This document shows positions 1,731 through 29,600 of a DNA stretch of 40,961 nt, in pieces. Every line of letters starts with the position of its first letter. Position 1 is the stretch's first letter. Made by a program: the position numbers and the translations under genes. This DNA is from Flavobacteriales bacterium CG_4_9_14_3_um_filter_32_8 (lineage in GTDB: Bacteria > Bacteroidota > Bacteroidia > Flavobacteriales_E > Vicingaceae). The notes under the pieces were generated by a model. It was given only the letters and a program-made list of their open reading frames with translations. It ran no database searches and was not told the origin of the DNA. The stretch is taken from the NCBI GenBank assembly GCA_002790175.1, contig PFUQ01000174.1:1-40961 (forward strand), given 5' to 3'.

Positions 1731-4700
1731 TTAATCTCCACCACCATCAGAAGTCCCAAACTCTTTAATCACCACTTTTTTTCTGTTTTCAATAATGTAG
1801 AAAGAAACATAAACTCCATCTTGAGTGTTTTTTAAAGTAATGGGAATATTGTTTCTAGTTAATTTATATTTACTACCTAAAATACTTTCATCCATTGTAA
1901 TAATGTAATCGCCATTAGGCATGTAAAATTCAAACTTACCTTTTATATTTGTTAAGGTATTATAGGTTTTTCCGTTGGTAGCGGTTATTTTAATTCTCGA
2001 TAAATCGAAAGATTTAGAGGTGTCTGCAATGGCTATTTTTTGTCGGTCTAAAACCACATCACCATAAACTTTAACTCCACGTACAAACGGAATAAATTGT
2101 TGATTATTGGTAATTACCTGAATGGTATCTTTTACATCAGGAAACCAACCCTGTAAATTATCTAAACTCCTTACATAAAATGGGTACGAGTTCATCATTA
2201 TATTTTTAATTTTAGCCTCCCCTTTATTATTGGTAATGACTTCTTTTGCTCCTAATCTTATAATTACATTCTCAATGGCAGGTTCATCCTTGTCACGTTT
2301 TCCATTTCCATTAATGTCATAAAAAGAAATAAAATCTAAGGATGCAGAAGTTTTTTTAATGAAAGGAATTGGTATTCCAAATTCTTTTCGAACCGTAGCT
2401 CCTATGGTAAAGTTTTGAGTAAGATTTCTTCCGTGGTCATTACTATTGATATTAACTAGTGTGTCGTTCGTGTAAAATGAACCATATTTACTGGTATTGA
2501 ATGAGTAATTTCCTCTTAAACTAAATTTCCAACCAGAATTGGTAAAGTAAAATATTTCAGGAAAAATTCCTATACTATGGTTGGTATAAATATTATCATA
2601 GTTGTAAATTAAATTTGATTCTAATATTAAATGCTTATTTTTAAATTGATGTTGATTTTGTAATGATAAACGCACATTTTGTGGGGTTATATCCTTATAT
2701 ACTTGGGTTTGAAAGGCATTGGTAGAAAAAGATCCGTAATTATATCTTGCAGAAAAATCCCAAACATGATATCGAAGTAAAGAAGAGAATTCAAAGTTAA
2801 AGTAATTTTTTTCAACTTCTAAATCTATAGGGTCGCTATATCCCGCTTTAATAAATGTGAAAACCAAGAAGTTTTGTAAAAAATCATACGTAGAGTATCT
2901 AAAACTACCCCCACGATTATGAATTCTTCTTGAAAGATAATCTCTATAATCATAAAAAACACCCGGTTGGTAGGATCCTTTATCTTTTTTTGTTGAGAAA
3001 GTTAAATTATTAAACAATAATTCTTGTTTAAACCCAGGTAATGTTGTAAATGTATTGTAGGTTTGTATATTTTGATAATTGTTCGACAAATAGGTATCCC
3101 AATTTTTATTTAGTTTATAGCTTGTATAGTGTGTTAAACTAAAGCGTTGAAATGAACCCATGCTAAAATTTTTATTGTTAAAACGAGATCCTAAATTAAA
3201 TTTTAATTTTTTTTCTAAAAACTGACTAGAGTAATTACCACCCACTAAGAAACCATAAATTTGATTAGAAGGAGTAGATGTATTATAATCGCTTCGTGTT
3301 GTTGTAGCACCAACGAAGCTAAAAAAATGTTTAAGTTGAATATTAAAATTAGGAAGTAGAGAAAATGAATTGATGGATTTATTACTGTAATAGGATATTT
3401 GCCGACCAAATTTACCAGTAATATTAAAATATTCGTTGTGCAGATAGGTATGAAAAATCCCGAAAGATTCGTTGCGTACTTGTCCAAATAGCCCTGGTGC
3501 TTTAACATAAAATGCCCCAGTTTTGTGTTTTTCTAAATAACTGTAAGATGCTTTTACCCCTTTTCCATAGCTAGTTATTCCAATTACATTTCCACTTACA
3601 TTACCAACTTCTACTGTTTTTTTATCATCAAAATAACCAATATACCAAGGTGCATTGGTTAAAAAATTATTAGTGTAATAATTTCGATTGTAATTCAATT
3701 GTGTAAAATAGGAAATACTTGCTTTTTCATTAATTTGTTTGAAGCCACGCATATCAATTGACATAAATGAGTTTACATCTAATAAATTTTGTACTGAAGC
3801 TTCAACGGTTAGAGGTAAATAGGGATAGCCATATTCTACCGCTTTAGCTTGATTAGGAAGTTTAATAAAATCAACTTTATTCCCCTTTTTAAACGCCCCT
3901 GCTTCTATTCCTTTCGGTTCGCTACTATTAATGTATAAGCTATATTTTTTGTAATATAAATTGGTATTTGGAAGGTATGAATTAATAGATATTTTTTTAA
4001 AATTTCGTTCTTTTTGAGTTAAAATTGACGTTCTATATTTTAATGTAGAATCTTGATGGCTTTCTAAACTCAAAGTAAAATTCGGGTTTTTAATGATAAA
4101 GTCATTCGTGTCCATTAACATTAAATCGCCTCTAAGCATCTTATAACTTACAAAAATATCTTGTTTGTAATTTCCTGTATTTTCAATTCGATATTCAAAA
4201 TCTTTATTGTTTTCTCCGTTTTTAAAATAGAATGTATTCGTTGGTTCAACACTTACGTTCCACGAGATTTTTTTTTTGGTATAAATCGAAAAATTATCAT
4301 TCGCAATTTGTTGATTATCAATATCGATAATAAATGCATTAATGATTACTTCAGTATTTCCGTTAATTAATTTTGTTGGGATAAGTATTACAGGAACAAA
4401 CAATGTATCTTTTGGTTTTATTTCGTATGAAATGGTTACATCATTCATCGATATCCAACTTCCAGGATAAATCAAATCAATTGTAAACTTTATATTTTCT
4501 GAGGTATTGTTGTAAATTTTTAAAACATTTGAAATAATTTCGCCTTGTTTTAATTCAATATTGTTTTTATTGAAACCCGTATGCAATTGGTCGGTTTCGT
4601 TTCCTTTTAAAGAGTTGCTAATACTGTCTTTTAGCTCTTTAACTAGTATTGGAGTGTTTTTGGTTGAATCGGGATTAAGCAAATCAATTATAGGTGAGCC

Positions 4701-4802
4701 TAAAATGGAATCATTTTGTGAAAAACTTAGGCTTATAAAAATTAGGTTCAATAATACGATTAATGAAAAATGAATAACAGAGCTATGTACATTTTTTTTC
4801 AA
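1731..4802 (-). CDS. 1023-aa outer-membrane protein with N-terminal beta-sandwich modules, a central beta-barrel-like region and two C-terminal SdrD-B/carboxypeptidase-regulatory-like modules (usher-like architecture)
   Basis: Long ORF with a TTG start 6 nt after the stop of the upstream gene and a KK + hydrophobic signal peptide ending SFSQ. Residues ~330-810 are dense in short alternating aromatic/polar strands (Y/F/N/S) typical of OM barrels. The C-terminal motifs are DINGNGKRDKDEPAIENVIIRL and KITATNGKTYNTLTNIKGKFEFYMPNGDY. Confidence 0.8.
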   Translation of the reverse strand: MKKNVHSSVIHFSLIVLLNLIFISLSFSQNDSILGSPIIDLLNPDSTKNTPILVKELKDSISNSLKGNETDQLHTGFNKNNIELKQGEIISNVLKIYNNTSENIKFTIDLIYPGSWISMNDVTISYEIKPKDTLFVPVILIPTKLINGNTEVIINAFIIDIDNQQIANDNFSIYTKKKISWNVSVEPTNTFYFKNGENNKDFEYRIENTGNYKQDIFVSYKMLRGDLMLMDTNDFIIKNPNFTLSLESHQDSTLKYRTSILTQKERNFKKISINSYLPNTNLYYKKYSLYINSSEPKGIEAGAFKKGNKVDFIKLPNQAKAVEYGYPYLPLTVEASVQNLLDVNSFMSIDMRGFKQINEKASISYFTQLNYNRNYYTNNFLTNAPWYIGYFDDKKTVEVGNVSGNVIGITSYGKGVKASYSYLEKHKTGAFYVKAPGLFGQVRNESFGIFHTYLHNEYFNITGKFGRQISYYSNKSINSFSLLPNFNIQLKHFFSFVGATTTRSDYNTSTPSNQIYGFLVGGNYSSQFLEKKLKFNLGSRFNNKNFSMGSFQRFSLTHYTSYKLNKNWDTYLSNNYQNIQTYNTFTTLPGFKQELLFNNLTFSTKKDKGSYQPGVFYDYRDYLSRRIHNRGGSFRYSTYDFLQNFLVFTFIKAGYSDPIDLEVEKNYFNFEFSSLLRYHVWDFSARYNYGSFSTNAFQTQVYKDITPQNVRLSLQNQHQFKNKHLILESNLIYNYDNIYTNHSIGIFPEIFYFTNSGWKFSLRGNYSFNTSKYGSFYTNDTLVNINSNDHGRNLTQNFTIGATVRKEFGIPIPFIKKTSASLDFISFYDINGNGKRDKDEPAIENVIIRLGAKEVITNNKGEAKIKNIMMNSYPFYVRSLDNLQGWFPDVKDTIQVITNNQQFIPFVRGVKVYGDVVLDRQKIAIADTSKSFDLSRIKITATNGKTYNTLTNIKGKFEFYMPNGDYIITMDESILGSKYKLTRNNIPITLKNTQDGVYVSFYIIENRKKVVIKEFGTSDGGGD

Positions 4803-4808
4803 ACGATT

Positions 4809-5423
4809 CTATGGATTTTCTTCAAGGTGGAATTTAATGTTTAATTGATATATTCCTGGATTATAGGTAAAATTGGGTTTTACACGAATATCAATATCAA
4901 AGTTAAACTCGTCGTAATTAGTTAAATAGTTGCCTGATCCATTGACATTGTCTGTACAACTACCTGCTGGTGTAACGGGTAATAATGCTGCAATAATATC
5001 TATAATATCATTGTTATTGGTAAATGTTTGAAAAACACCATCCATAGGGGAAGTAGTACAAATATTTCTAACTCTAATTTCAAGAGCATTAATAGGTGGA
5101 TTTATTCCTAATCCACTTCCATATAAATTTAACTGTTCCCATTCTGATAGTGGTGTGCCACCTCCTGGATTATTATTGATAATCATCGTTAAACTCCAAG
5201 AACATAAAGGGTCTGGAATAACTTTGTCCTCTACTTTTACTCTAATTTTAGCTACACTATTAATAATAATTCCACCATTGTAACTGGTAAAATTGTCAAA
5301 TAATAGGAGTGAATTAACGGTGGTGTTGGGGATAATTTCTACTAGCCCACAATGAATTTGAGCTTCAATAAAATTTGAAACTAAAAGAAGTATTAAAGAA
5401 AAAAAAGTTACTTTAGAAATCAT
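4809..5423 (-). CDS. secreted 204-aa subunit-like protein, paralogue of the 260-aa protein upstream (4 Cys)
   Basis: ATG start and signal peptide ...NFIEAQ. The C-terminal strand PGIYQLNIKFHLEENP aligns with PGVYTMYVQYILLEDQ of the neighbour, and the two share F-x-FD...Y..GI / [LI]RV / SW[DS]L motifs. Confidence 0.75.
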   Translation of the reverse strand: MISKVTFFSLILLLVSNFIEAQIHCGLVEIIPNTTVNSLLLFDNFTSYNGGIIINSVAKIRVKVEDKVIPDPLCSWSLTMIINNNPGGGTPLSEWEQLNLYGSGLGINPPINALEIRVRNICTTSPMDGVFQTFTNNNDIIDIIAALLPVTPAGSCTDNVNGSGNYLTNYDEFNFDIDIRVKPNFTYNPGIYQLNIKFHLEENP

Positions 5424-5436
5424 CTTTATAGAATTA

Positions 5437-5473
5437 TTAAAGGATGTGTTTGATTAGCAAACACATCCTTTAA
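5437..5473 (-). promoter_or_regulatory. 16-bp perfect stem-loop between the two subunit-like genes (possible attenuator or mRNA-stabilising hairpin)
   Basis: ttaaaggatgtgtttg-attag-caaacacatcctttaa read directly. No clear U-tract on either strand. Confidence 0.5.
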
Positions 5474-5495
5474 AATAATTACTTACCAATTTATT

Positions 5496-6278
5496 TTATT
5501 GGTCTTCTAACAAAATGTATTGAACGTACATGGTGTAAACACCTGGTTCTGCATAAGCTCCAGCTCCATTTACAGTCGCAATATCTTCAAATGTTGCACC
5601 GTCAGCATCAGCAGCATTTGGAAAAATTGCTGGTAAGCTTGGCAAAATTCTGTAGTCTATTACGTAGAAATAATCAGAAGTTAAACCTGTTTGAGTTAAA
5701 TAACTACCACCTGGCAAAAAGTCAGCACCAACTATACCAGAAGTACCAGCATGTCCACCAATGTATTTATCTACAGTTGTTGGAGGTGTGTTTGTACCTG
5801 CGTTTACATACAAACTGTTACCAGCACTTGGAGTTGTTGCAGGTGAAAAAGCTTGATTGTAATCTGAAAATAAACCTGTTGCTGCTCCATCACCATTGTT
5901 AGGTTGATTTTGGTGTAATTCTAATAAACTCAAAGGAAGATCTGGAATGGCATTCACGTTATTGTTGCCATAATCAATTTGTTGATCCCAAAATTCGGGA
6001 CCATTCGTACCAGTTGAACGTCCAACAGCATACAAATCCCAACTAACTGTTGAGCTTACTCTTAATACTGTAGCACCATACTTAGTAATACCAGCATAGT
6101 ACTCGTTAATTTCATCGAATACAAATTCGATTTGATCTGGAGTGGTCATATCCAGTTGTAAAACTGGTTGAAGATCCATGGTTACAGTTACATCTTTTTC
6201 GTCGATTAACTGTGCTTTTAAACTGCTTGCAGAGCCTATTATTAATAAAGCACCACACAAATACGATAAATTTTTCAT
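5496..6278 (-). CDS. secreted 260-aa Gly/Ala/Thr/Asn/Pro-rich subunit-like protein (candidate major fibre subunit)
   Basis: ATG start and signal peptide ...SLKAQ. The mature N-terminus DVTVTMDLQPVLQLDM has an alternating hydrophobic pattern. The C-terminal beta-strand motif is PGVYTMYVQYILLEDQ. The gene is visibly less AT-rich than its neighbours. Confidence 0.8.
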   Translation of the reverse strand: MKNLSYLCGALLIIGSASSLKAQLIDEKDVTVTMDLQPVLQLDMTTPDQIEFVFDEINEYYAGITKYGATVLRVSSTVSWDLYAVGRSTGTNGPEFWDQQIDYGNNNVNAIPDLPLSLLELHQNQPNNGDGAATGLFSDYNQAFSPATTPSAGNSLYVNAGTNTPPTTVDKYIGGHAGTSGIVGADFLPGGSYLTQTGLTSDYFYVIDYRILPSLPAIFPNAADADGATFEDIATVNGAGAYAEPGVYTMYVQYILLEDQ

Positions 6279-6295
6279 AATTGTTTTAATTTAAG

Positions 6296-6442
6296 GTTAA
6301 TAATTAATTGTTTAAGGTTTGAGGTTTGAGGTTTTTTTCAGCCTCTGATAACTTCTAACTTCCAACTTCAATTTTTTTAAGTTAATAATTGATTGATTGA
6401 TTGATTGAGATTTTTTAATAGTTTAAAGTTAATAATTAATTG
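6296..6442. repeat. three direct copies of a 15-bp core GTTAATAATT(A/G)ATTG (6296-6310, 6381-6395, 6428-6442), plus (AGGTTTG)n at 6315-6338 and (GATT)4 at 6391-6406
   Basis: Read directly in the 174-bp spacer between the PapD-like gene and the 260-aa gene. Copies 1 and 3 are identical; copy 2 has one mismatch. Confidence 0.8.
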
Positions 6443-6452
6443 ATAAATGCTA

Positions 6453-7376
6453 TTATTTTATTTCAAAATTTAATTTTGCTGCTTGAATTTCCTCTGAATT
6501 TTCGTAATCCAACACGCCAATGGCAAGGTAATTTCCTTTTTTAAGGTTTTTTGGTAACACAAAGATAAAGTCACGAATTAATTCAGGAACAATGGTAAAA
6601 GTTTTCACAGTTAAACGTTCTTGTTGCCCAGTTTTTAAGTTGGTTAAATCAATATATGATGTACAAAAAGCTATTCCATCGCCTATGTTTTTGGCTTCAA
6701 TGGTAATCATTTGAGCAGTATCTTTTTCGGCAAAACTAAAATTGATAATCTCAACTTTGTTGGTGGCAACATTTGGAGGATTTTGGTAAACAAAAACGCC
6801 AAAAGCGTAAGTGGGAATAACTCCTAAAGCTACTGTTCCATCTCCTTTTGATGGTGGTTCTAATGTTTTTCTTGGAGATTCTTGTTCCAACATAATAACG
6901 CTCCATGCCGATTTTTCCCCTGCTTCATTATTAGGAACGCTTACCGTAAATTTTACTTCTTTTTTTTCTCCAGGTTTCAATTCAATAAAAGTAGGTGAGA
7001 TGTTTATCCATTTAGCTAATGAATATTTCCCGTTTCCAGGAGCCATAAAACTTGTTTTTCCTTTTCCATTCATATTAAAATCGTAGATATTTACTTTAAA
7101 TTGTTTGGCAATTTTTGTGTCGTTATGAACAGAAATTTTATATGTTTTAGCTTCTCCAAGTTTTTGTGTTAAATGAAAATGTGCTGGAGAAACTGAAACT
7201 CCTTTGGTTTGATAATTATTTTCGCCACTTGCCTCAGGAATATTTACTGAAGGATTTACCGTAGTGGCTGATGTACTATCAGGCTTAGCAATAGAGGCAG
7301 AGTCTGTTTGAGCCAAAACAGTGAAACATTCTCCACATATAATTAATACTATTAAAAAAGTACTTAATCTAGTCAT
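6453..7376 (-). CDS. periplasmic two-domain beta-sandwich protein, PapD-like chaperone candidate
   Basis: 307-aa ORF with a signal peptide ...TVLAQ and a Ser/Thr/Pro linker, followed by two ~110-aa halves. ISPTFIELKPGEKKEVKFTVSVP and GTVALGVIPTYAFGVFVYQNPP resemble the F1/G1 strands and the ...YRP hinge of pilus chaperones. Confidence 0.75.
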   Translation of the reverse strand: MTRLSTFLIVLIICGECFTVLAQTDSASIAKPDSTSATTVNPSVNIPEASGENNYQTKGVSVSPAHFHLTQKLGEAKTYKISVHNDTKIAKQFKVNIYDFNMNGKGKTSFMAPGNGKYSLAKWINISPTFIELKPGEKKEVKFTVSVPNNEAGEKSAWSVIMLEQESPRKTLEPPSKGDGTVALGVIPTYAFGVFVYQNPPNVATNKVEIINFSFAEKDTAQMITIEAKNIGDGIAFCTSYIDLTNLKTGQQERLTVKTFTIVPELIRDFIFVLPKNLKKGNYLAIGVLDYENSEEIQAAKLNFEIK

Positions 7377-7616: not shown

Positions 7617-7622
7617 AATTTG

Positions 7623-8021
7623 TGGAGTCGGAGGGATTCGAACCCTCGTCCAAACAAGGAACTAATAAGCTTTCTTCATGTGTAGCTTTTATTTAATTGT
7701 TAGACTTAAAGCAGGTTAAAAGCCACCAACCTTAAGCTTAAGCTTCTTTAGTTTCGCCAATAAACCGAAGCAATTTATTGACTAGTTTGAAATGATGATA
7801 CCTCTAATACACCCGTTAACAAACAGAACAGTTGTGAGGTAAATGGTTCTACCCCTCTAAGGAGTAGAATTAAGCAAATCCGACTAAGTCGAGATTAGGC
7901 AGCCATTGCATAGTTATTTTCGCCAATTAGCGATTTGAGAGCCGATATTTACGAGCCAACTCACAATGCTCGACATGCTTACCTATCCATTCATCTTGCT
8001 GTCAAAACCAAAAACGACCCC
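7623..8021 (-). ncRNA. ssrA: tmRNA (transfer-messenger RNA)
   Basis: On the minus strand the 5' end is GGGGTCGTTTTTGGTTTTGAC. The 3' end is ...GAGGGTTCGAATCCCTCCGACTCCA (T-arm plus acceptor pairing with the 5' end, CCA not encoded). The internal tag ORF GGC GAA AAT AAC TAT GCA ATG GCT GCC TAA (7924-7895) encodes GENNYAMAA, the Bacteroidota-type tag. Confidence 0.93.
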
Positions 8022-9330: not shown

Positions 9331-10168
9331 TTATTTTATTTTTTCCAACTATTTTCTTTAATAAATAATAAAAATATTCCGTTTTAATTATTTCCTTTCC
9401 TCCTTGCTGCAATTCCATTGGAATTCGTTGTAGATGATTTTTTATAGTATCATCCTTTAATCCTGCACATCCAAAAGTTAAATCCACCTCATTTTTAATT
9501 GCAGCAAAAAATTGATGAGAAACTCCGAAATCAGTAAATGGAAATGAAAATACGTTATACTCTAAATTATATGGAGTTATTACAGCTTTTATACTTTCTT
9601 TAGTTTGAGTAATTTGCTCTTCTAACTTGATTTGATTATACAAAGGATGGTTTTTACTGTGAGCACCAACAGTAAAACCTTGTTGTATTAATTGTTCTAT
9701 TTGTGGTGAAGTTAAATAAGGCTTCTCATTTTTTAAGTATTCTTCAAAGTCAATGTTATTTTCTTTAGCCAATTCATCTAAAATTTCTTTTTCTGAATAA
9801 GAAATATCCAATAACCCTTTTGCAACTAATTTTTCTGCTAAAATACTTGCTTTAAAACGATAAAAAATAGCTTTATTATCAATAAAATCAGAATTTAAAA
9901 ATATGGTTGCAGGAATTCCTTGTTCTTTTAAAATTGGAGCAGCAACATCATAAAAATCTCTTAATCCATCATCAAAAGTCAAGTGAAAATAATTTTTTTT
10001 TAGCGGTTTATCTTCTTTTACCAATCGAATAAGTTCTTTTAATTCAATGGGTTCGAAGTATTTTAAAAAATAAGCTAAATCTGCTTTAAATAATTGACTA
10101 CTTCGAGGTTGATACAAATGTTTTAAATGGAATGGAACATTATCTGAAACTGCATGGTAGAATGGCAA
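9320..10168 (-). CDS. polysaccharide deacetylase (NodB homology) family protein
   Basis: HLTFDDGLRDFYDVAAPILKEQGIPATIFL and GAHSKNHP motifs. The called start is TTG, and the frame stays open upstream to the neighbour's stop, so the true start is uncertain. Confidence 0.8.
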   Translation of the reverse strand: MPFYHAVSDNVPFHLKHLYQPRSSQLFKADLAYFLKYFEPIELKELIRLVKEDKPLKKNYFHLTFDDGLRDFYDVAAPILKEQGIPATIFLNSDFIDNKAIFYRFKASILAEKLVAKGLLDISYSEKEILDELAKENNIDFEEYLKNEKPYLTSPQIEQLIQQGFTVGAHSKNHPLYNQIKLEEQITQTKESIKAVITPYNLEYNVFSFPFTDFGVSHQFFAAIKNEVDLTFGCAGLKDDTIKNHLQRIPMELQQGGKEIIKTEYFYYLLKKIVGKNKIIRP

Positions 10169-10261
10169 AATAATTTTTTTCCCTGTTAATCCAATTAATA
10201 GATTTTGACTAAAAATTTTAGCTCCTAAACTCGAAATATTTTTTGCTAAGTCCTTGATGAT

Positions 10262-11200
10262 TTAGTAGTTTAAAAGTTTTAAAACTTTAGAATTAGTTTT
10301 ACTAATTTGAAAATAAGAGGTTTGAATACCTCCAAAAGCCCTAAAATAACGTTCGATAGATTCCACCATGCTTCCTTCAAAGTTAAATGCTGTTGTTTTT
10401 TTAGCTGATTTTTTGATGGCTTCCCACAACAACAAACTCATAGAACCAGATGTTTTAAACTTAGTAGTTGTAACTCCATGTAAATAATAGGCAGAAACCT
10501 TATCCCACACATAAAATAATATAGAATGAATATTTCCTTGTTCATCTTTAGCCATTAACAATTCACCACAATGGGATGATTTACAAAAATCAAAGACCTT
10601 TTTTAATTTAGAAAAAGGAATAGGATAATTCTCTTTATTATCTTGATACACTTTTAATTTCAATTGATACAGTAATGAAATATCGTCAATCGTTTCGATA
10701 GTCAACAGTTTTTCAGCTTTTCGAATTTCCCTTCTTATATTTTCCTTAAAATCAGCAAACACTTTTTCGGTATCAGTTAAATCATTAATAATATAGGTAT
10801 ATCTAGTTGATTGTTGAAATCCTTTCCAATTAAATGGTAACCAATTGGTAAATTCTGGTAAAAAATTTTGTTTAAATGCATCTACTTTTGGTAACTGTTC
10901 AATCATACTTGTAAGCACTTCTTTCTCAAATCCAACTTTATTGGTGTACTTTTGATTTTTAGGGTAATTGAGCCACACCCCTTGATACGGACACAGAAAT
11001 TGAGGAGTTATTATTTTAAAACTTTTCTTTTTAGTAATCACATAGGGTAAAAATCCTAAAACATTTTCACCTTTAGTTTCAATAACCACATCCCATTCTT
11101 CCTTTTTGTAAATTGCATCAAACCATTGGTATTGAAGAAATAAAGGAATAGATTTCTCTTCCTCACAAAATTTTTGATATACTAATTTAGTAGTGGTCAT
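10262..11200 (-). CDS. FemAB-like / GNAT-fold acyltransferase family protein
   Basis: 312 aa. The size and the C-terminal FNFEGS...IERYFRAFGG segment resemble the FemAB/BioF2-like acetyltransferase family. Assignment is by eye only. Confidence 0.55.
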   Translation of the reverse strand: MTTTKLVYQKFCEEEKSIPLFLQYQWFDAIYKKEEWDVVIETKGENVLGFLPYVITKKKSFKIITPQFLCPYQGVWLNYPKNQKYTNKVGFEKEVLTSMIEQLPKVDAFKQNFLPEFTNWLPFNWKGFQQSTRYTYIINDLTDTEKVFADFKENIRREIRKAEKLLTIETIDDISLLYQLKLKVYQDNKENYPIPFSKLKKVFDFCKSSHCGELLMAKDEQGNIHSILFYVWDKVSAYYLHGVTTTKFKTSGSMSLLLWEAIKKSAKKTTAFNFEGSMVESIERYFRAFGGIQTSYFQISKTNSKVLKLLNY

Positions 11201-11257
11201 ATAACTTCCAAAAATAGCTTTAAAATTTATAAACCGTAAAAAACTATTTTTATTTTA

Positions 11258-11265
11258 TAATTTTG
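11258..11265 (+). promoter_or_regulatory. TAATTTTG (-7 box) candidate pdhB promoter
   Basis: Exact TAnnTTTG 69 nt upstream of the pdhB ATG. Confidence 0.3.
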
Positions 11266-11333
11266 AAGTCTTAATTGATTTAGGTTTTAGTTTGTCGTTA
11301 TAAACTTTAAACTTATCAACATTAAACTACATT

Positions 11334-12311
11334 ATGAGGCAAATACAATATAGAGAGGCTTTAAACGAAGCCATGTGTGAAGAAATGCGTAAAGATGATT
11401 CCATTGTTTTAATGGGTGAAGAAGTTGCTGAATACGATGGTGCATACAAAGTAAGCAAAGGTATGCTGGCTGAATTTGGTCCAAAAAGAATAATTGATAC
11501 ACCCATTGCTGAAAATGGATTTACAGGTATTGCTGTGGGAGCAGCTATGAATGGTTTACGACCAATTGTTGAATACATGACCTGGAATTTTTCATTAGTA
11601 GCCATCGATCAAATTATAAATAATGCAGCGAAAATGCGTAATATGTCGGGCGGACAATTAAACATTCCTATTGTTTTTAGGGGAGGAACTGGTTCTGCGG
11701 GGCAATTAGGTGCTACACATTCACAAGATTTTTCCAACTGGTATGCCAATTGTCCAGGATTAAAAGTGATTCAACCTTCTAACCCAAAAGATGCTAAAGG
11801 TTTGTTAAAAGCATCAATTAGAGATAATGATCCTGTTATTTTTATGGAATCAGAGCAAATGTATGGCGATAAAGGAGAGGTTCCAGAAGGTGAATACATT
11901 ATTCCTATTGGTGTTGCAGACGTTGTAAGAGAAGGGAAAGATGTTACCATTGCTAGTTTCGGAAAAATGATGAAATTAGTAAATACTGCAGCACACGAAT
12001 TGGCAAAAGAAGGGATTAATGCAGAAGTAATAGATTTAAGAACATTGCGCCCTATTGATTATAATACTATAATAAAATCTGTTAAGAAAACGAACAGAAT
12101 GGTTTTTGTAGAAGAATCTTGGCCTTTGGGTTGCTTTGCATCAGAAGTAACTTATAAAGTGCAAAACGAAGCTTTTGATTATTTAGATGCTCCAATTATT
12201 AGAATTACTGGGGCAGATGTTCCTATGAGCTTCTCTCCACCATTAATAGAAGCATACTTGCCCAATGTTGATAAAATCATTAAAGCAGTAAAACAGGTAA
12301 TGTATAAATAA
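11334..12311 (+). CDS. pdhB: pyruvate dehydrogenase E1 component beta subunit
   Basis: 325 aa. YREALNEAMCEEMRKDDSIVLMGEEVAEYDGAYKVSKGMLAEFGPKRIIDTPIAENGFTGIAVGAAMNGLRP is a typical E1-beta (transketolase pyrimidine-binding plus C-terminal domain) sequence. Confidence 0.93.
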   Translation: MRQIQYREALNEAMCEEMRKDDSIVLMGEEVAEYDGAYKVSKGMLAEFGPKRIIDTPIAENGFTGIAVGAAMNGLRPIVEYMTWNFSLVAIDQIINNAAKMRNMSGGQLNIPIVFRGGTGSAGQLGATHSQDFSNWYANCPGLKVIQPSNPKDAKGLLKASIRDNDPVIFMESEQMYGDKGEVPEGEYIIPIGVADVVREGKDVTIASFGKMMKLVNTAAHELAKEGINAEVIDLRTLRPIDYNTIIKSVKKTNRMVFVEESWPLGCFASEVTYKVQNEAFDYLDAPIIRITGADVPMSFSPPLIEAYLPNVDKIIKAVKQVMYK

Positions 12312-12315
12312 GAAA

Positions 12316-12366
12316 GGGACAGGAGACAAGGGAAGGGGAAAGGGGGATAGGGGACAAGGGATAGGG
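12316..12366 (+). repeat. G-tract array (GGG/GGGG/GGGGG separated by 2-4 nt), G-quadruplex-capable, within a ~170-bp purine-rich tract
   Basis: Read directly: GGGacaGGagacaaGGGaaGGGGaaaGGGGGataGGGGacaaGGGataGGG, starting 5 nt after the pdhB stop. GGGGttaGGGG follows at 12410-12420. Confidence 0.85.
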
Positions 12367-12528
12367 AAAGTGAAATGGCATGTGAGTTAGGATTTTCCCT
12401 CTAAAAATAGGGGTTAGGGGTGTGTAAAAATTAGAAATGGAAAGAGAAAATGTGAAATAAGAAAGATGAAATATGATGGGACAAGGAAAAGAAAAAAAAC
12501 TTTACGTCTCTGCGAGAAATCCCAATAG

Positions 12529-12612
12529 CAAGAAGTCCAAAGTCGGAAGTAACGTCAAGCTTCGACCTTCCTCCGTCAGCTGACGGATTCGGTCTCCTGA
12601 CTTCCTGTTTTT
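12529..12612 (+). terminator. GC-rich multi-hairpin block ending in T5 (possible distal pdhB terminator or structured RNA)
   Basis: Outer stem agaagtc/gacttc (12532-12537 / 12599-12604), hairpin ggaag...cttcc (12545-12571) and a perfect 16-nt palindrome tccgtcagctgacgga (12572-12587), then ttttt at 12608-12612. Confidence 0.35.
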
Positions 12613-12666
12613 AACGACTAATATGAAATTATTCATTAATCATTATTCATTATACATTAAAATCTC

Positions 12667-12674
12667 TACTTTTG
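12667..12674 (+). promoter_or_regulatory. TACTTTTG (-7 box) candidate hppA promoter
   Basis: Exact TAnnTTTG 44 nt upstream of the ATG at 12718. Confidence 0.4.
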
Positions 12675-12717
12675 CCGTCCTAAAAAAACAAAATAGTACA
12701 ACAAAATAAATAACAGT

Positions 12718-15477
12718 ATGGGTTCAATAATGATTTACTTACCAATTTTAATGGCTTTTATCGGTCTAATTTTTATGGCTGCTAAAAGAGCATGGGTATT
12801 AAAACAAGATGCTGGTGATGGTAAAATGAAAGAGATTTCTGACCACATTTATGAAGGTGCATTGGCATTTTTAAAAGCAGAATATCGGTTACTTGCCATT
12901 TTTGTAATTGGAGCAAGTATTGTTTTAGCAGGAATTTCTTTTATTGTTCCTACTACTCACATATTAATAGTAGTAGCTTTTATTTTCGGTGCATTCTTTT
13001 CTGCTTTAGCTGGAAACATGGGAATGAAAATAGCAACCAAAACCAATGTAAGAACTACTCAAGCTGCACGTACTAGTTTACCACAAGCTCTAAAAGTTTC
13101 TTTTGGTGGTGGAACTGTAATGGGATTAGGTGTTGCTGGTCTAGCAGTTTTAGGTTTAACAGGTTTCTTTATCTTATTATTCAACTTTTTCATGAAAGGT
13201 GTCTGGACTTCAACCGAAGACATGACCATTGTGTTGGAAACTTTAGCAGGATTTTCATTAGGTGCTGAATCTATTGCATTATTTGCTCGTGTTGGTGGTG
13301 GTATTTATACCAAAGCTGCCGATGTTGGTGCTGATTTAGTAGGTAAAGTTGAAGCAGGTATTCCTGAAGATGATCCTCGTAATCCGGCTACAATTGCCGA
13401 TAATGTAGGCGATAATGTGGGCGATGTTGCAGGTATGGGTGCCGATTTATTTGGTTCTTATGTTGCTACAGTTTTAGCTGCAATGGTTTTAGGAAACTAT
13501 GTAATTAAAGACATGGGCGGAGCTATTTCAGATATTTTTGGAGGAATAGGACCTATCTTATTACCAATGGCAATTGCTGGTTTTGGAATTTTGTTTTCCA
13601 TCATTGGAACCATGTTGGTTAAACTAACCAATAAAGAAGCAAAAGAAAAACAAGTCCAAAATGCGTTGAACAAAGGAAATTGGGCTTCTATTATATTAAC
13701 AGCCATTGCTTGTTTTGTGTTGGTGAAATATATGTTGCCACCAACTATGAAAATGAACTTTTTTGGTGAAGGAATAATAGAAATATCTTCATTAAGAGTA
13801 TTTTACGCAACCATAGTAGGTTTAGCTGTAGGAGGAGTAATTTCATCTATAACTGAATATTACACTGGTTTAGGCACTAGACCTGTTTTACGAATTGTTG
13901 AAAAATCAAGTACTGGAGCTGGAACTAACGTAATTGCTGGATTAGCAACTGGTATGATTTCTACTTTTCCTACTGTATTAATATTTGCAGCTGCAATTTG
14001 GGCTTCTTATTCTTTTGCAGGATTTTATGGTGTTGCTTTAGCTGCTTCTGCCATGATGGCAACAACAGCCATGCAATTGGCTATCGATGCTTTTGGACCA
14101 ATTTCTGATAATGCTGGTGGAATTGCTGAAATGAGTGAATTGCCCAAAGAAGTAAGAACTCGTACTGATATTTTAGATTCTGTAGGTAATACAACTGCTG
14201 CTACTGGCAAAGGTTTTGCCATTGCTTCTGCTGCTTTAACCTCTTTGGCATTATTTGCTGCTTATGTTACGTTTACTGGAATTGATGGAATTAATATTTT
14301 TAAAGCACCAGTTTTAGCTATGTTATTTGTTGGTGGTATGATTCCAGTAGTTTTCTCTGCATTAGCAATGAACTCTGTCGGTAAAGCTGCCATGGATATG
14401 GTGTATGAAGTACGTCGTCAGTTTAAAGAAATTCCTGGCATTATGGAGGGTACTGGAAAACCTGAATATGGTAAATGTGTCGAAATATCTACTAAAGCAG
14501 CATTAAGAGAGATGATGTTACCAGGTATTTTAACCATCGGTTTTCCTATATTAGTAGTAACATTACCTATGTTATTGGGATATGATAACAAATTAATTGC
14601 TGAAATGCTAGGTGGTTATATGGCTGGAGTTACCGTTTCTGGAGTACTTTGGGCAATTTTTCAAAACAATGCTGGTGGTGCTTGGGACAATGCAAAAAAA
14701 TCGTTTGAAGCTGGTGTTATGATTAATGGTGAAATGACTTATAAAGGCTCTGATGCTCATAAAGCTGCTGTAACAGGTGATACTGTTGGTGATCCTTTTA
14801 AAGATACTTCTGGTCCTTCTATGAACATTTTAATTAAATTGACTTGTTTAATTGGTTTAGTGATTGCACCTATATTAGGTGGTCACACTACTGATGCTGC
14901 TACAAAAGAAACTGAAACTATTGCTGAAAATGTAATTATTGAAGAAACTCCTGCTACTCCTAGTATAGATGAGTTAACTGGAGAATGGGTGTTGGATGAA
15001 TCACATTCTTATGTAGAGTTTTCCATTCGTCACTTATTGGCAACATCTAAAGGAAGTTTCCAAAAAGTTAGTGGATTTGTAAACTTCTCAGATACTACAA
15101 CTAAAATGAATATCACCATTGATGTAAATTCTGTTTATACAGGTAATGAAAAAAGAGATAATCATTTAAAAGGGGAGGAGATGTTTAATTTGGCAAAATA
15201 CCCAACGATAACTTTTGTAGCCAATCAGGTTATTAAAACAGTTGATGGATATTTGGCTAAAGGAAAACTTACAATAATGGAAACTACTAAAGACGTTGAA
15301 ATTCCTTTCAATTATTTTGGAAAACAAGATACTCCTTGGGGTTTTCCATCAGCAGCATTTGCTGGTGGAATAATTATTAATAAAAATGATTTCGGCTTAA
15401 CTTATGGTAGTGGAATATTAGGAGAAGATGTGAAAATGGAGTTTGCAGTAGAGCTAAACCCTAAGAAAGCAGAGTAA
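12718..15477 (+). CDS. hppA: membrane-bound (K+-dependent type) ion-translocating pyrophosphatase fused to a C-terminal YceI-like domain
   Basis: 919 aa. PPase motifs include [55 protein letters not shown] (Ala at the K+-dependence position) and [14 protein letters not shown]. After a ~30-aa Thr/Glu linker, residues ~752-919 read [16 protein letters not shown]...[26 protein letters not shown], a YceI family pattern. Confidence 0.9.
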
Positions 15478-26642: not shown

Positions 26643-29600
26643 ATGCGAAAACTAATTTCTTTTATTCTTTTACTCCTCCTTAACTTTTCTATTTCTGCCC
26701 AAAATTGGGTAAACTCTGCAGGCGGTAATTTTAATGACGAATCTTATGATGTTGAGGTAGATGCTGCTGGAAATATTTACACAACTGGTTACACCACAGC
26801 AGCTTCTGTTTTTGGACCTTCCATCAATTTAACAACCAATGGTTATAGTGATGTTTATGTTTCTAAAAGTAGTGCCAATGGTAATTTTTTATGGGTAAAG
26901 GTTTTTGGTGGACTTTTAGCAGATAGAGGATATGATATTGAAGTTGATGCATCAGGAAACATTTATGTAACAGGAACTTTTAATGGAACAGCTACGTTTG
27001 GAAGTGTTACGCTCACAGCTAACAATAATTCACAAGACATCTTTGTGCTTAAATTAGACAATTTAGGTAATGTGATTTGGGTTAAGTCGGAAGGAGGTCC
27101 AGAAGGTGATACTGGATATGGAATTACTTTCGATAATTCTGGAAATGTTATTGTTACTGGTCAATTTAAGGGAACTGCTCAAATAGGATTAAATACGTTT
27201 TCTAGTGCAATTGATCCTATTTCGGGATTACCAGCTTACGATATTTTTGTTTCAAAATACGATGCCAATGGAATTGATTTGTGGTCGATACAAGGTACTG
27301 CAAAATATGACGATAGGGGATTAGCCTTAAAAACAGACCAAAATAACAACATTTATATAACTGGTCAGTTTTCTGACACGCTTACCATTGCAGGTTCTAC
27401 ACACAACAATACTATTTTTAATGCTGGAATGTTGTTAAAATTAGATTCCATGGGTAATGAAGTTTGGTTTAAAAGAATGGGAGCTGTCCAGACGTTGGTA
27501 TATGACCTTGATATAGATAACCTAGGTAATATTTACATTACTGGCGATTTTATGGGACAAATGATTATTATTGGAGCAAGTGGAAATAATTATTTGAATG
27601 GAAACTATACTTATCGAATATTTATCATCAAATTCGATTCACAAGGAGAACTATTATGGATGCGTGAAGACGATTCTAATTCACAAGTATCTTCAAAAGC
27701 AATAACATTAGATGCTAATCAAGACCCATACATTTCAGGTACTTTTAAATGTGTTTTTGATGAATATGCCGATTCTTTGGGTTCAGGTTTATTTAATTCG
27801 GTTGGTTACAATGATATTTTTATCACCAAGTACAACAACTCTGGAACTCAACAATGGATGAAACAGTATGGTGGACCATTGGATGATTATTGTTCAGGAA
27901 TTGCCATTTCACAAATTAACAATCCAATTATTGCAGGAGGTTACACCGAGTATTTTAATTATCCAGTGGGTTTTAGTTTTTCGCTTTTCTCAGGAATAAA
28001 TAATTATTTCCCTCCTTATTCTTGGAATCCTTGGTGTTTCAACAATAATTACATGTATCTGAATGCCGTTGGTGCAAAAGATATTTTTATAGCAAAACCA
28101 GTCGATTTATTAATTCCACATTATTACTATTATGAGGATGTTGCATGTTATGATTCTAATTTACCTTGCATAGAATCTCTTTGTCCTGATTCATTGGTTT
28201 TTTGTGGCGGTGGTCAAGTAGCTGATTTTACACACACAGCAGGAAATGGTTACTACGATGAGGATTATAACGCCAATCCAACCAATTACCAGCATGGTCC
28301 TTATTTTGATTTCTTGTGGAATAATGGTGATACAACTTACTATACAAATACCCCAACTACTGGAGATTACTGGGCAAACACAAAACGTATTGATAATTGC
28401 ACCATTACTAATGATACTGTTTTTGTTACTATCAACCCTATTCCACAAATGCCTTTGTTAACGGACGACCATGGATTTAATACACTTTCTTCTTACTATA
28501 ATGATATGCATTTGTGTTTTCCAGATACTGTTACTACTTGGTTTAATTATTTAGATACAAATTACCAATTTAGTTATACTATTCCAAATGGCACGATTTA
28601 TACAGATTCTTTACCTCATCAAATATTTGAAGCTGGAACTTACAATGTGGAGGTAGTTGATAGTAATAATTGTTTAAGTGGACAAGATTTTATTTTACAA
28701 TATGATTATCCCGAAGTAAAAGATACTATAGTTCCTTACATCATACAATTAAATGATACTGTTTGTTTAGGAGAACAAATATGCTACATCATTGCAGATT
28801 CTATTACAAACCCAAATGCCAATTTAACTCCTTATTGTGATTCAAATATTTATTATCCAAATATAGGATGTTTAGGTTTTTGTTTTACACCATTAGTTAC
28901 AGGGTGGTATCCAGTAAACCATACTATTATTTTAGGATACATTAATTTATGTGGATTAGATACCACACATTATTATGTTGAGGATTCCCTTTATGTGGTA
29001 GTTTTACCCATTCCTACTATGAACCTAAATTTAAGTGGAGATGGCTTACTTTGTCCAGGAGATACGGTAAATATTTGGACAGATACAGTTGTGTCTGGAT
29101 TTACTTGGAGTGGACCAGGGATTTTAATCGTTTCAGCAAATGGTGATTCGATATTTGCCAACCAACAAGGAACTTATAGCTATGGTGGAATTTTGACTGA
29201 CTCGATTACTGGATGCACAAATGTAATCAATAAGTATTATAATCTTACGGTAAAACCTAGTCCAACGATAATGAGCAATGTACCTGATAATATTATCTGT
29301 CCAGGAGACTCCCTTTTATTAACATGTATGCAATCCGGCATAGCATATAATTGGATTGGACCACAAGGTAATTTAATAGGAACTAACCAAACCATTTGGG
29401 TAAATGTTCCTGGATTTTATCATTGTGTATTAACCGATTACGATGGATGTGAACTGACTTCCAATACTATCGAATTAAAAGAATACAATACACCGTATTT
29501 ATTAGTTGAACCAGGAACTGAGCTTTGTCATACAGGTGCAATTGTATTGACTGCGGTTTATAGTGGGTTACCAACATTTCAATGGTTACCTCCAATCAAT

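Follow-up and report, generated by a model that had tools for sequence, protein, structure and literature searches.

The stretch analyzed here, 40,961 nucleotides (nt) of contig PFUQ01000174.1 from Flavobacteriales bacterium CG_4_9_14_3_um_filter_32_8 (referred to below as the window), carries four co-directional genes on its minus strand that probably form an operon for building a surface fiber of the TLP-1 type by a chaperone-usher-like pathway. An earlier, sequence-only reading of the same DNA had delimited these genes and the gaps between them, and the list of open reading frames (ORFs) reproduced its coordinates exactly (Table 1). Following the order of the genes for the 307-, 260-, 204-, and 1023-amino-acid (aa) proteins, the spacers measure 174, 72, and 6 nt. 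The N termini of all four proteins consist of a short basic stretch and then a hydrophobic core, and the predicted cut falls before a glutamine in each (between Ala and Gln three times and between Ser and Gln once), in keeping with the Sec signal peptides that had been assigned to them. The isoelectric points of the mature proteins are 4.05 (260 aa), 4.4 (204 aa), 8.4 (307 aa), and 9.3 (1023 aa); both putative subunits are acidic, and the chaperone-like and usher-like proteins are basic.

Table 1. Features of the locus, in window coordinates
Feature	Coordinates	Strand	Source and remarks
Periplasmic chaperone-like protein gene	6453-7376	minus	ORF list, 307 aa, ATG start
Probable major fiber subunit gene	5496-6278	minus	ORF list, 260 aa, ATG start
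Putative minor subunit gene	4809-5423	minus	ORF list, 204 aa, ATG start
Usher-like outer-membrane protein gene (predicted)	1731-4802	minus	ORF list, 1023 aa, TTG start
Neighbor gene with type IX secretion system C-terminal domain	485-1597	minus	ORF list, 370 aa
Intergenic region upstream of the major-subunit gene	6279-6452	minus	174 nt, three short tandem-repeat arrays

The 260-aa protein links the locus to a solved fiber. When the sequences of the Protein Data Bank (PDB) were searched with a profile of its family, chains 9IKK_A (E 4e-56) and 9IKJ_A (E 1e-54) were recovered over profile positions 23-257. Entries 9IKJ and 9IKK are the fibrils TLP-1a and TLP-1b, whose structures were determined directly by cryo-electron microscopy from Tsinghua Lotus Pond water after filtration (PMC11494351). 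They are helical tubules 8 nm wide with a negatively charged 15-Å lumen, in which the N-terminal beta1 strand of protomer n+4 enters the cleft of protomer n and completes its immunoglobulin-like (Ig-like) domain, and four protofilaments are joined by this n+4 to n exchange (PMC11494351). The paper gives no producer species, gene cluster, chaperone, or usher, the last two words occurring only in its reference list, and it reports an unannotated Flavobacteriales protein as the best match of TLP-1 in the AlphaFold DB (PMC11494351).

In BLASTP, the 260-aa protein and TLP-1b are 40% identical over window residues 24-258 (E 2e-50), a value which, like the other identities to TLP-1, is approximate because the deposited sequence came from the density map. 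The alignment opens at L24 of the window protein, one residue past the predicted signal cut, and the N-terminal segments correspond (window protein, LIDEKDVTVTMDLQPVLQL; TLP-1b, LISEQNVTVTMDLQPVLQL). The mature N terminus, QLIDEKDVTVTMDLQPVLQLDM, is the predicted donor strand and is near-invariant within the family, and the 260-aa protein is the most conserved of the four, the relatives listed being 71-89% identical. Neither it nor the 204-aa protein has a match in Pfam (E <= 1) or NCBIfam, and a Pfam search with 33 members of the 260-aa family at E <= 10 gave nothing useful and no match to WxL. As judged from these alignments, the 260-aa protein is a full-length homolog of the TLP-1a/b fibril protomer and most likely the major subunit of a fiber, and a strand-deficient Ig-like fold with N-terminal donor-strand exchange can be expected for it by homology. 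The possibility, raised in the sequence-only reading, that the small proteins have complete folds unrelated to pilins is contradicted by this homology (E 2e-50) to a strand-deficient protomer. With an identity of just 40%, the window organism is therefore not the producer of the pond fibrils themselves; the homolog in a Sphingobacteriia metagenome-assembled genome (MAG) is 43% identical. That reading had also called the fiber system uncharacterized, which no longer holds for the fiber, the structure of a homolog having been solved, whereas the divergent chaperone/usher-like assembly that it proposed is supported. What this locus adds is a genomic context for a TLP-1-type fibril. We found no link in the literature between TLP-1 or DUF916 (the family of the 307-aa protein; see below) and a Bacteroidota chaperone-usher-like operon in a search whose coverage left out most subscription journals, and the system may have been described before in other papers.

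The 260-aa and 204-aa proteins had been taken for paralogues, a kinship that goes undetected in pairwise BLASTP (E 0.13) but is apparent at the level of their families. Compared by hhalign (profiles A3 and A4), the two families are related with 90.9% probability (E 1.1e-6 over 176 columns), and in hmmsearch the hidden Markov model of each family finds the other in distant loci (5e-11 and 1e-8). The two proteins are thus old, distant paralogues, and they end in a common motif, PG[VI]Y-x-[LM]-x-[VI]-x-[YF]-x-L-x-E, in the C-terminal region. In the 204-aa family the N-terminal strand is shorter than that of the major subunit, and four cysteines are conserved: C74, C122, and C156, which lie in the mature protein, are invariant, and an N-terminal cysteine is present wherever that end of the protein is covered. 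The gene was found in every locus examined. We would guess that its product serves as a tip, adaptor, or terminator subunit.

The 307-aa protein consists of a signal peptide, a disordered linker rich in Ser, Thr, and Pro (residues 22-54), and Ig-like domains at approximately residues 60-198 and 208-306. The AlphaFold2 (AF2) model (predicted local distance difference test score [pLDDT] 81; predicted template modeling score [pTM] 0.66) bears out the earlier description of a linker and two beta-sandwich halves. In this model a loop of low confidence (residues 167-190, pLDDT 52-56) precedes the strand AFGVFVYQ, the last of domain 1; a QNPP junction separates the domains, and the second domain reaches the C terminus. 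The protein ends right after the last strand of domain 2 with no hydrophobic tail, membrane anchor, or lipobox, and because it lacks both anchor and lipobox it should be soluble in the periplasm. The two motifs singled out by the sequence-only reading, ISPTFIELKPGEKKEVKFTVSVP and GTVALGVIPTYAFGVFVYQNPP, are both present in the translation, and a nonsignificant hhalign alignment to FimC places them on strand regions that we take to be F1 and G1.

By family, the protein is not a PapD homolog. It scores 29.5 bits against PF06030 (DUF916, WxLIP_PGBD), above the curated cutoff of 27.3, and the same Pfam family is matched by 47 of its 47 relatives with a best E value of 2e-11; it is a member of the DUF916/WxLIP family. 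PapD gave no match to the protein in Pfam at E <= 1 and is not among the top 25 families matched by the relatives; DUF3324 is likewise missing from the matches at E <= 1 and from those top 25. Many of the 47 relatives have weak matches to MSP, ASH, and Cep192, domains that are classed with the N-terminal domain of PapD in the PapD-like superfamily. Among PDB sequences, the single sequence and the profile found chance matches only (Flattop, synaptotagmin C2). By fold, the resemblance to pilus chaperones that had been suggested is apparent. In a Foldseek search of the model against the PDB, WxLIP of Enterococcus faecium ranked first (9i25_C and 9i1y, crystal structures from 2026; E 3e-12), and the matches after it included chaperones of all branches of the chaperone-usher systems, namely, CfaA, CsuC, Caf1M, EcpB, FimC, and YadV (E 1e-9 to 1e-7); in these chaperone matches both domains are aligned over approximately 250 columns, with target-normalized template modeling (TM) scores of 0.44-0.57. 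As modeled, the protein would have the two-Ig-domain fold of a pilus chaperone together with a loop and a strand that it could donate. WxLIP itself has two perpendicular Ig-like domains, and in AF2 work its loop turns into a strand that completes the beta-sandwich of its WxL partner (PMC10599100), behavior that amounts to donor-strand complementation under another description.

The 1023-aa protein is laid out as a signal peptide, Ig-like domains at residues 73-174 and 181-314, a barrel at 328-828, and beta-sandwiches at 846-918 and 938-1005. In the AF2 model (pLDDT 80.7, pTM 0.59) the barrel is formed by some 26 to 28 long antiparallel strands joined by short loops. Foldseek against the PDB returned the FimD usher 3rfz_E as the top match (E 1.8e-12; 851 aligned columns against a chain of 778 residues), behind which came further entries of FimD and PapC at about 1e-10 to 1e-5. 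Other barrels, including TonB-dependent receptors, LptD, and MtrB, reached no better than about 7e-7, so that the ushers lead by about five orders of magnitude. The model thus agrees with the earlier suggestion of periplasmic-type modules on either side of a barrel, and the best PDB matches are FimD and PapC. Ushers have one periplasmic N-terminal domain, a 24-strand barrel, and two periplasmic C-terminal domains; in the model, soluble domains lie on both sides of the predicted barrel and two of them are C-terminal, the N-terminal domains are two, the strands number some 26 to 28, and the TM scores to ushers are only 0.28-0.37. The N- and C-terminal domains showed no relation to the 307-aa family in hhalign. 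Weak Pfam matches to SdrD_B, SpaA, and CarboxypepD_reg, all below the cutoffs, are found at 827-999, within the last 170 or so residues.

The family of the 1023-aa protein is large, with 1199 clusters at 50% identity (E <= 1e-3), 215 of them at E <= 1e-30, and matches as weak as E 1e-67 still show the full-length architecture. Distant relatives occur in other orders of Bacteroidia, in Geofilum rhodophaeum and in Sphingobacteriia or Bacteroidia MAGs, where their database names go no further than "hypothetical," "SdrD B-like domain-containing," or "MSCRAMM family." Some relatives carry C-terminal extensions (P0514 and P0425) with a SPOR domain, which scores 34.5 bits in P0514. SPOR domains bind peptidoglycan; the C terminus of these relatives is therefore expected to be periplasmic, as it is in ushers, and in certain lineages the cell wall may serve as an anchor for the usher-like protein. 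Much longer forms, of 1400-1790 aa, occur in Polaribacter (L009-L011 and L013) and Lutibacter (P0183-P0194 and P0190); the 400- to 800-residue N-terminal extension of these variants gave no meaningful match in a Pfam scan.

Along the lines of the synteny survey that the sequence-only reading had proposed, all four families were found together in 13 loci across the Bacteroidia, in two gene orders. These loci span the Flavobacteriales (Vicingus, Polaribacter, Flavicella, and several MAGs), Geofilum rhodophaeum (L019), and a Sphingobacteriia MAG (L020). In 11 Flavobacteriales loci besides the window, drawn from MAGs (one of Vicingus and several more), from four Polaribacter genomes, and from Flavicella sediminum, the quartet stands in the order of the window while the flanking genes vary from locus to locus; the nearest of these is the Vicingus MAG, at 73-90% identity. 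In Geofilum rhodophaeum and the Sphingobacteriia MAG the order is major subunit, minor subunit, barrel protein, and DUF916 protein, and hmmsearch identified the families there with E values of 3.5e-43 and 7e-70, respectively, for the DUF916 protein (profile A2), 8e-31 and 1e-88 for the major subunit (A3), and 3.5e-21 and 2e-37 for the minor subunit (A4). Since the co-occurrence of the four genes persists through a change of gene order, this linkage is strong evidence of a joint function of all four. Flavobacteriales genomes and aquatic metagenomes are rich in homologs of the 307-, 260-, and 1023-aa proteins. A single-protein scan of the genome collection gave 9 loci, and a query built from an alignment would reach further.

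Two of these genomes offer observations of their own. In the Sphingobacteriia MAG, a gene for a 516-aa FKBP-domain protein, a putative peptidyl-prolyl isomerase, lies between the usher-like and chaperone-like genes (positions 10991-12541) and may encode an extra periplasmic folding factor. A Flavobacteriales MAG from Crystal Geyser carries the quartet under locus tags CO023_02235 to CO023_02250 (L003/L004, positions 10001-15447); its DUF916, 258-aa, and 206-aa proteins are found on 63-74 contigs and its 990-aa protein (CO023_02250) on 21. AlphaFold DB entry A0A2M8AA21, which was used in building TLP-1, may derive from this MAG.

The ORF that lies 133 nt beyond the 1023-aa gene had been mentioned as a possible fifth member. 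Its 370-aa product is secreted and has a type IX secretion system (T9SS) type A sorting domain (Por_Secre_tail, E 2e-12; TIGR04183, E 4e-10, in the Pfam and NCBIfam scans) and no other recognized domain. Within the set of five proteins it is alone in carrying a T9SS C-terminal domain, as had been stated. The gene has no tblastn match in any of the Flavobacteriales loci searched (L001-L013) and therefore lies outside the unit. The spacer before the major-subunit gene is longer here than in other Flavobacteriales loci (174 nt versus approximately 35-55 nt) and contains the arrays (ATTG)x5.2 at 6388-6408, (TAACTTC)x3 at 6349-6369, and (GTTTGAG)x3.6 at 6310-6334. A separate promoter or regulatory region may lie in this spacer, and the arrays could be a site of slipped-strand regulation. 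A scan for sigma-70 promoters and terminators was uninformative; the promoters of Bacteroidota depart from the sigma-70 consensus. A transfer-messenger RNA gene (ssrA, positions 7622-8021, minus strand) with the tag peptide GENNYAMAA immediately precedes the 307-aa gene on its upstream side, and elsewhere in the window a very large ORF (1809 aa) occupies positions 26643-32072 of the plus strand.

We propose that the four products would cooperate as follows. All four would be exported by Sec, and the basic 307-aa DUF916 protein would capture the acidic, strand-deficient 260- and 204-aa subunits in the periplasm by inserting a donated strand into the subunit groove; the candidate for this strand is the flexible loop together with the strand that follows it (approximately residues 176-198, TVALGVIPTYAFGVFVYQ). 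The chaperone-subunit complexes would dock on the periplasmic domains of the 1023-aa barrel, where an arriving major subunit would displace the strand of the chaperone with its own near-invariant N-terminal strand by donor-strand exchange, and the growing chain would leave the cell and pack into an 8-nm tubule. We infer from these comparisons the strand complementation between chaperone and subunit, the passage of the fiber through the barrel, and the place of the minor subunit in the fiber. The points on which the sequence-only reading had said that chaperone/usher-like assembly could fail (the fold of the 307-aa protein, the barrel of the 1023-aa protein, and the relationship of the subunits) were examined directly or by approximation, and each came out in its favor.

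The locus shares its list of parts, encoded in one operon, with the chaperone-usher pili, be they classical (Fim/Pap), alternate (CFA/I, Ecp), or archaic (Csu/CupE). Both have a two-Ig-domain periplasmic protein and small acidic subunits whose N-terminal strand is conserved; to these is added, as far as the model of the 1023-aa protein goes, a large barrel flanked by periplasmic beta-sandwiches, two of them C-terminal, and the homologous TLP-1 fiber is likewise held together by donor-strand exchange. The differences are also clear. There is no sequence homology to the PapD_N/C, usher, fimbrial, SCPU, or DUF4402 families; the chaperone-like protein belongs by sequence to the DUF916/WxLIP family instead; the barrel is plug-less in the model and preceded by two N-terminal domains; TLP-1 has four protofilaments, n+4 to n exchange, and a 15-Å lumen, whereas chaperone-usher pili exchange strands from n+1 to n; and the host belongs to the Bacteroidia, outside the phyla that the earlier reading quotes for chaperone-usher systems. 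The system would work like a chaperone-usher pilus and yet lacks the sequence features by which membership in that family is recognized. With the type V (FimA/Mfa) pili it shares the phylum and polymerization by strand exchange, but its subunits lack a lipoprotein signal, a FimA/Mfa match, and a protease-processing context. A type V pilus was rejected in view of predicted cuts between Ala and Gln typical of signal peptidase I, the lack of a lipobox, and the lack of a FimA/Mfa family match. Unlike T9SS adhesins, the four proteins have no T9SS C-terminal domain and the neighboring T9SS gene is not conserved beside the cluster; T9SS cargo was rejected in the absence of Por_Secre_tail and TIGR04183 from all four.

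Several observations weigh against chaperone-usher-like assembly. The sequence-only reading had proposed a search of the PapD, usher, SCPU, and DUF4402 family profiles, and this gave no sequence-level match for any of the four proteins. The hallmarks of the chaperone-usher systems, PapD_N (PF00345) and PapD_C (PF02753) for the chaperone and Usher (PF00577), PapC_N, and PapC_C for the usher, were not detected in the 307-aa protein and the 1023-aa protein, respectively; the last three are also missing from 12 relatives of the 1023-aa protein. A profile of the 1023-aa family finds no usher, and nothing else of relevance, among PDB sequences, and in hhalign the family is related to five ushers of Escherichia coli (FimD, HtrE, YehB, EcpC, and ElfC) with a probability of 1.7%; the corresponding value for the 307-aa family against seven E. 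coli chaperones (FimC, YadV, YehC, EcpB, EcpE, ElfD, and YcbF) is 3.1%. In the secondary-structure map of the model, the longest gap between barrel strands (328-828) is 21 residues, and the canonical plug insertion of approximately 80-90 residues is missing; the two N-terminal domains in place of one also depart from the usher plan. The Foldseek TM scores are low (0.28-0.37 for ushers and 0.44-0.57 for chaperones) and the root mean square deviations are large, and the similarity appears to be one of architecture and fold, drawn from models with pTM values of 0.59 and 0.66. The four-protofilament, n+4 to n geometry of TLP-1 is not readily explained by a single-file usher. Finally, the TLP-1 sequence to which the 260-aa protein is compared was read out of a density map with a Flavobacteriales AlphaFold model as the guide, which leaves its identities approximate.

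Some of these points would be accommodated if the subunits self-assembled outside the cell with no chaperone, in the manner of TasA fibers and archaeal cannulae, the barrel serving as an export pore or surface anchor and the DUF916 protein as an envelope adaptor of the kind proposed for Gram-positive WxLIP. The poor fit of the TLP-1 geometry to single-file extrusion (PMC11494351) and the lack of a plug-sized insertion in the barrel agree with such a scheme, as does the recovery of TLP-1 fibers free from filtered pond water, and the nearest structural relative of the 307-aa protein is WxLIP, the surface linker of the literature. However, this protein has neither a membrane anchor nor a lipobox and is expected to be soluble in the periplasm, the subunits have no T9SS domain and no other evident route across the outer membrane, and a strand-deficient subunit must be shielded while it is in the periplasm. 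The strict linkage of the quartet across orders and the rank of FimD and PapC above all other barrels also argue for assembly by a chaperone and an usher-like pore, and we regard self-assembly as unlikely.

The WxLIP likeness raises the further question of whether the WxL (Csc) clusters of Firmicutes have a Gram-negative counterpart in this locus, whose small proteins would be WxL-like and bound to the wall or surface through the DUF916 protein, with no fiber. In those clusters WxLIP is built as DUF916, DUF3324, and a transmembrane helix (PMC10599100; 9I1Y and 9I25). The PF06030 score above its cutoff and the WxLIP crystal structures as best structural matches speak for this; both proteins also have two Ig-like domains with a flexible loop, which in WxLIP is predicted to complete the beta-sandwich of a partner; the WxL clusters, moreover, pair one DUF916 protein with two related partners, small or large (PMC10599100), as this locus does. 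The small proteins here, on the other hand, give no Pfam WxL match, and the WxL chain of 9I25 is not among the PDB sequences that the subunit profiles recover at E <= 10; no WxL-domain protein is recognizable by sequence. There is no DUF3324 match, C-terminal membrane helix, or LPXTG protein either, the partner is a subunit clearly homologous to a solved fibril protomer, and the Gram-negative envelope here comes with a large outer-membrane barrel that WxL clusters lack. We therefore hold a fiberless WxL-type system to be very improbable. Least credible of all is a role for the 1023-aa protein as a surface adhesin of the MSCRAMM/SdrD type with functionally unrelated small genes beside it. That idea draws on the SdrD_B, SpaA, and CarboxypepD_reg matches at 827-999 and on the NCBI names of relatives ("SdrD B-like domain-containing protein," "MSCRAMM family protein"), but these matches are under the Pfam cutoffs and confined to the last 170 or so residues, while about 500 residues model as a transmembrane-type barrel. 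It was rejected on account of this barrel, the periplasmic SPOR domain that follows those domains in relatives, and the company that the small genes keep with the 1023-aa gene in 13 of 13 loci.

We thus favor chaperone-usher-like assembly of a TLP-1-type fiber by the quartet. Tentatively, and with slightly less than even confidence, we would go further and propose that the locus represents an unrecognized class of donor-strand-exchange pilus, widespread in aquatic Bacteroidia, that combines a WxLIP-type chaperone with a plug-less usher-like barrel, makes a four-protofilament tubule, and has no detectable sequence kinship to PapD or ushers; the Gram-positive WxL clusters would then be evolutionary relatives, and WxLIP would originally have been a pilus-type chaperone.

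TLP-1, a structure from pond water to which neither a species nor a gene cluster nor a function had been assigned, gains from this locus a producer group (the Bacteroidia), a set of genes, and a candidate assembly machine. Assembly of the chaperone-usher type would reach a phylum that is known for type V pili and T9SS adhesins, and the Gram-positive WxL/WxLIP clusters would be tied to the chaperones of Gram-negative pili, which suggests an evolutionary bridge between the two. A mechanistic question is raised as well, namely, how a four-protofilament tubule could emerge from a plug-less barrel. Culturable carriers of the genes exist in Polaribacter, Flavicella sediminum, Lutibacter sp. Hel_I_33_5, and Geofilum rhodophaeum. 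In aquatic Bacteroidia the fiber probably functions in adhesion or matrix formation. Marine and freshwater metagenomes contain these genes in abundance, so that an ecological role is possible, and the fiber may affect particle attachment as well as how many free fibrils natural waters contain.

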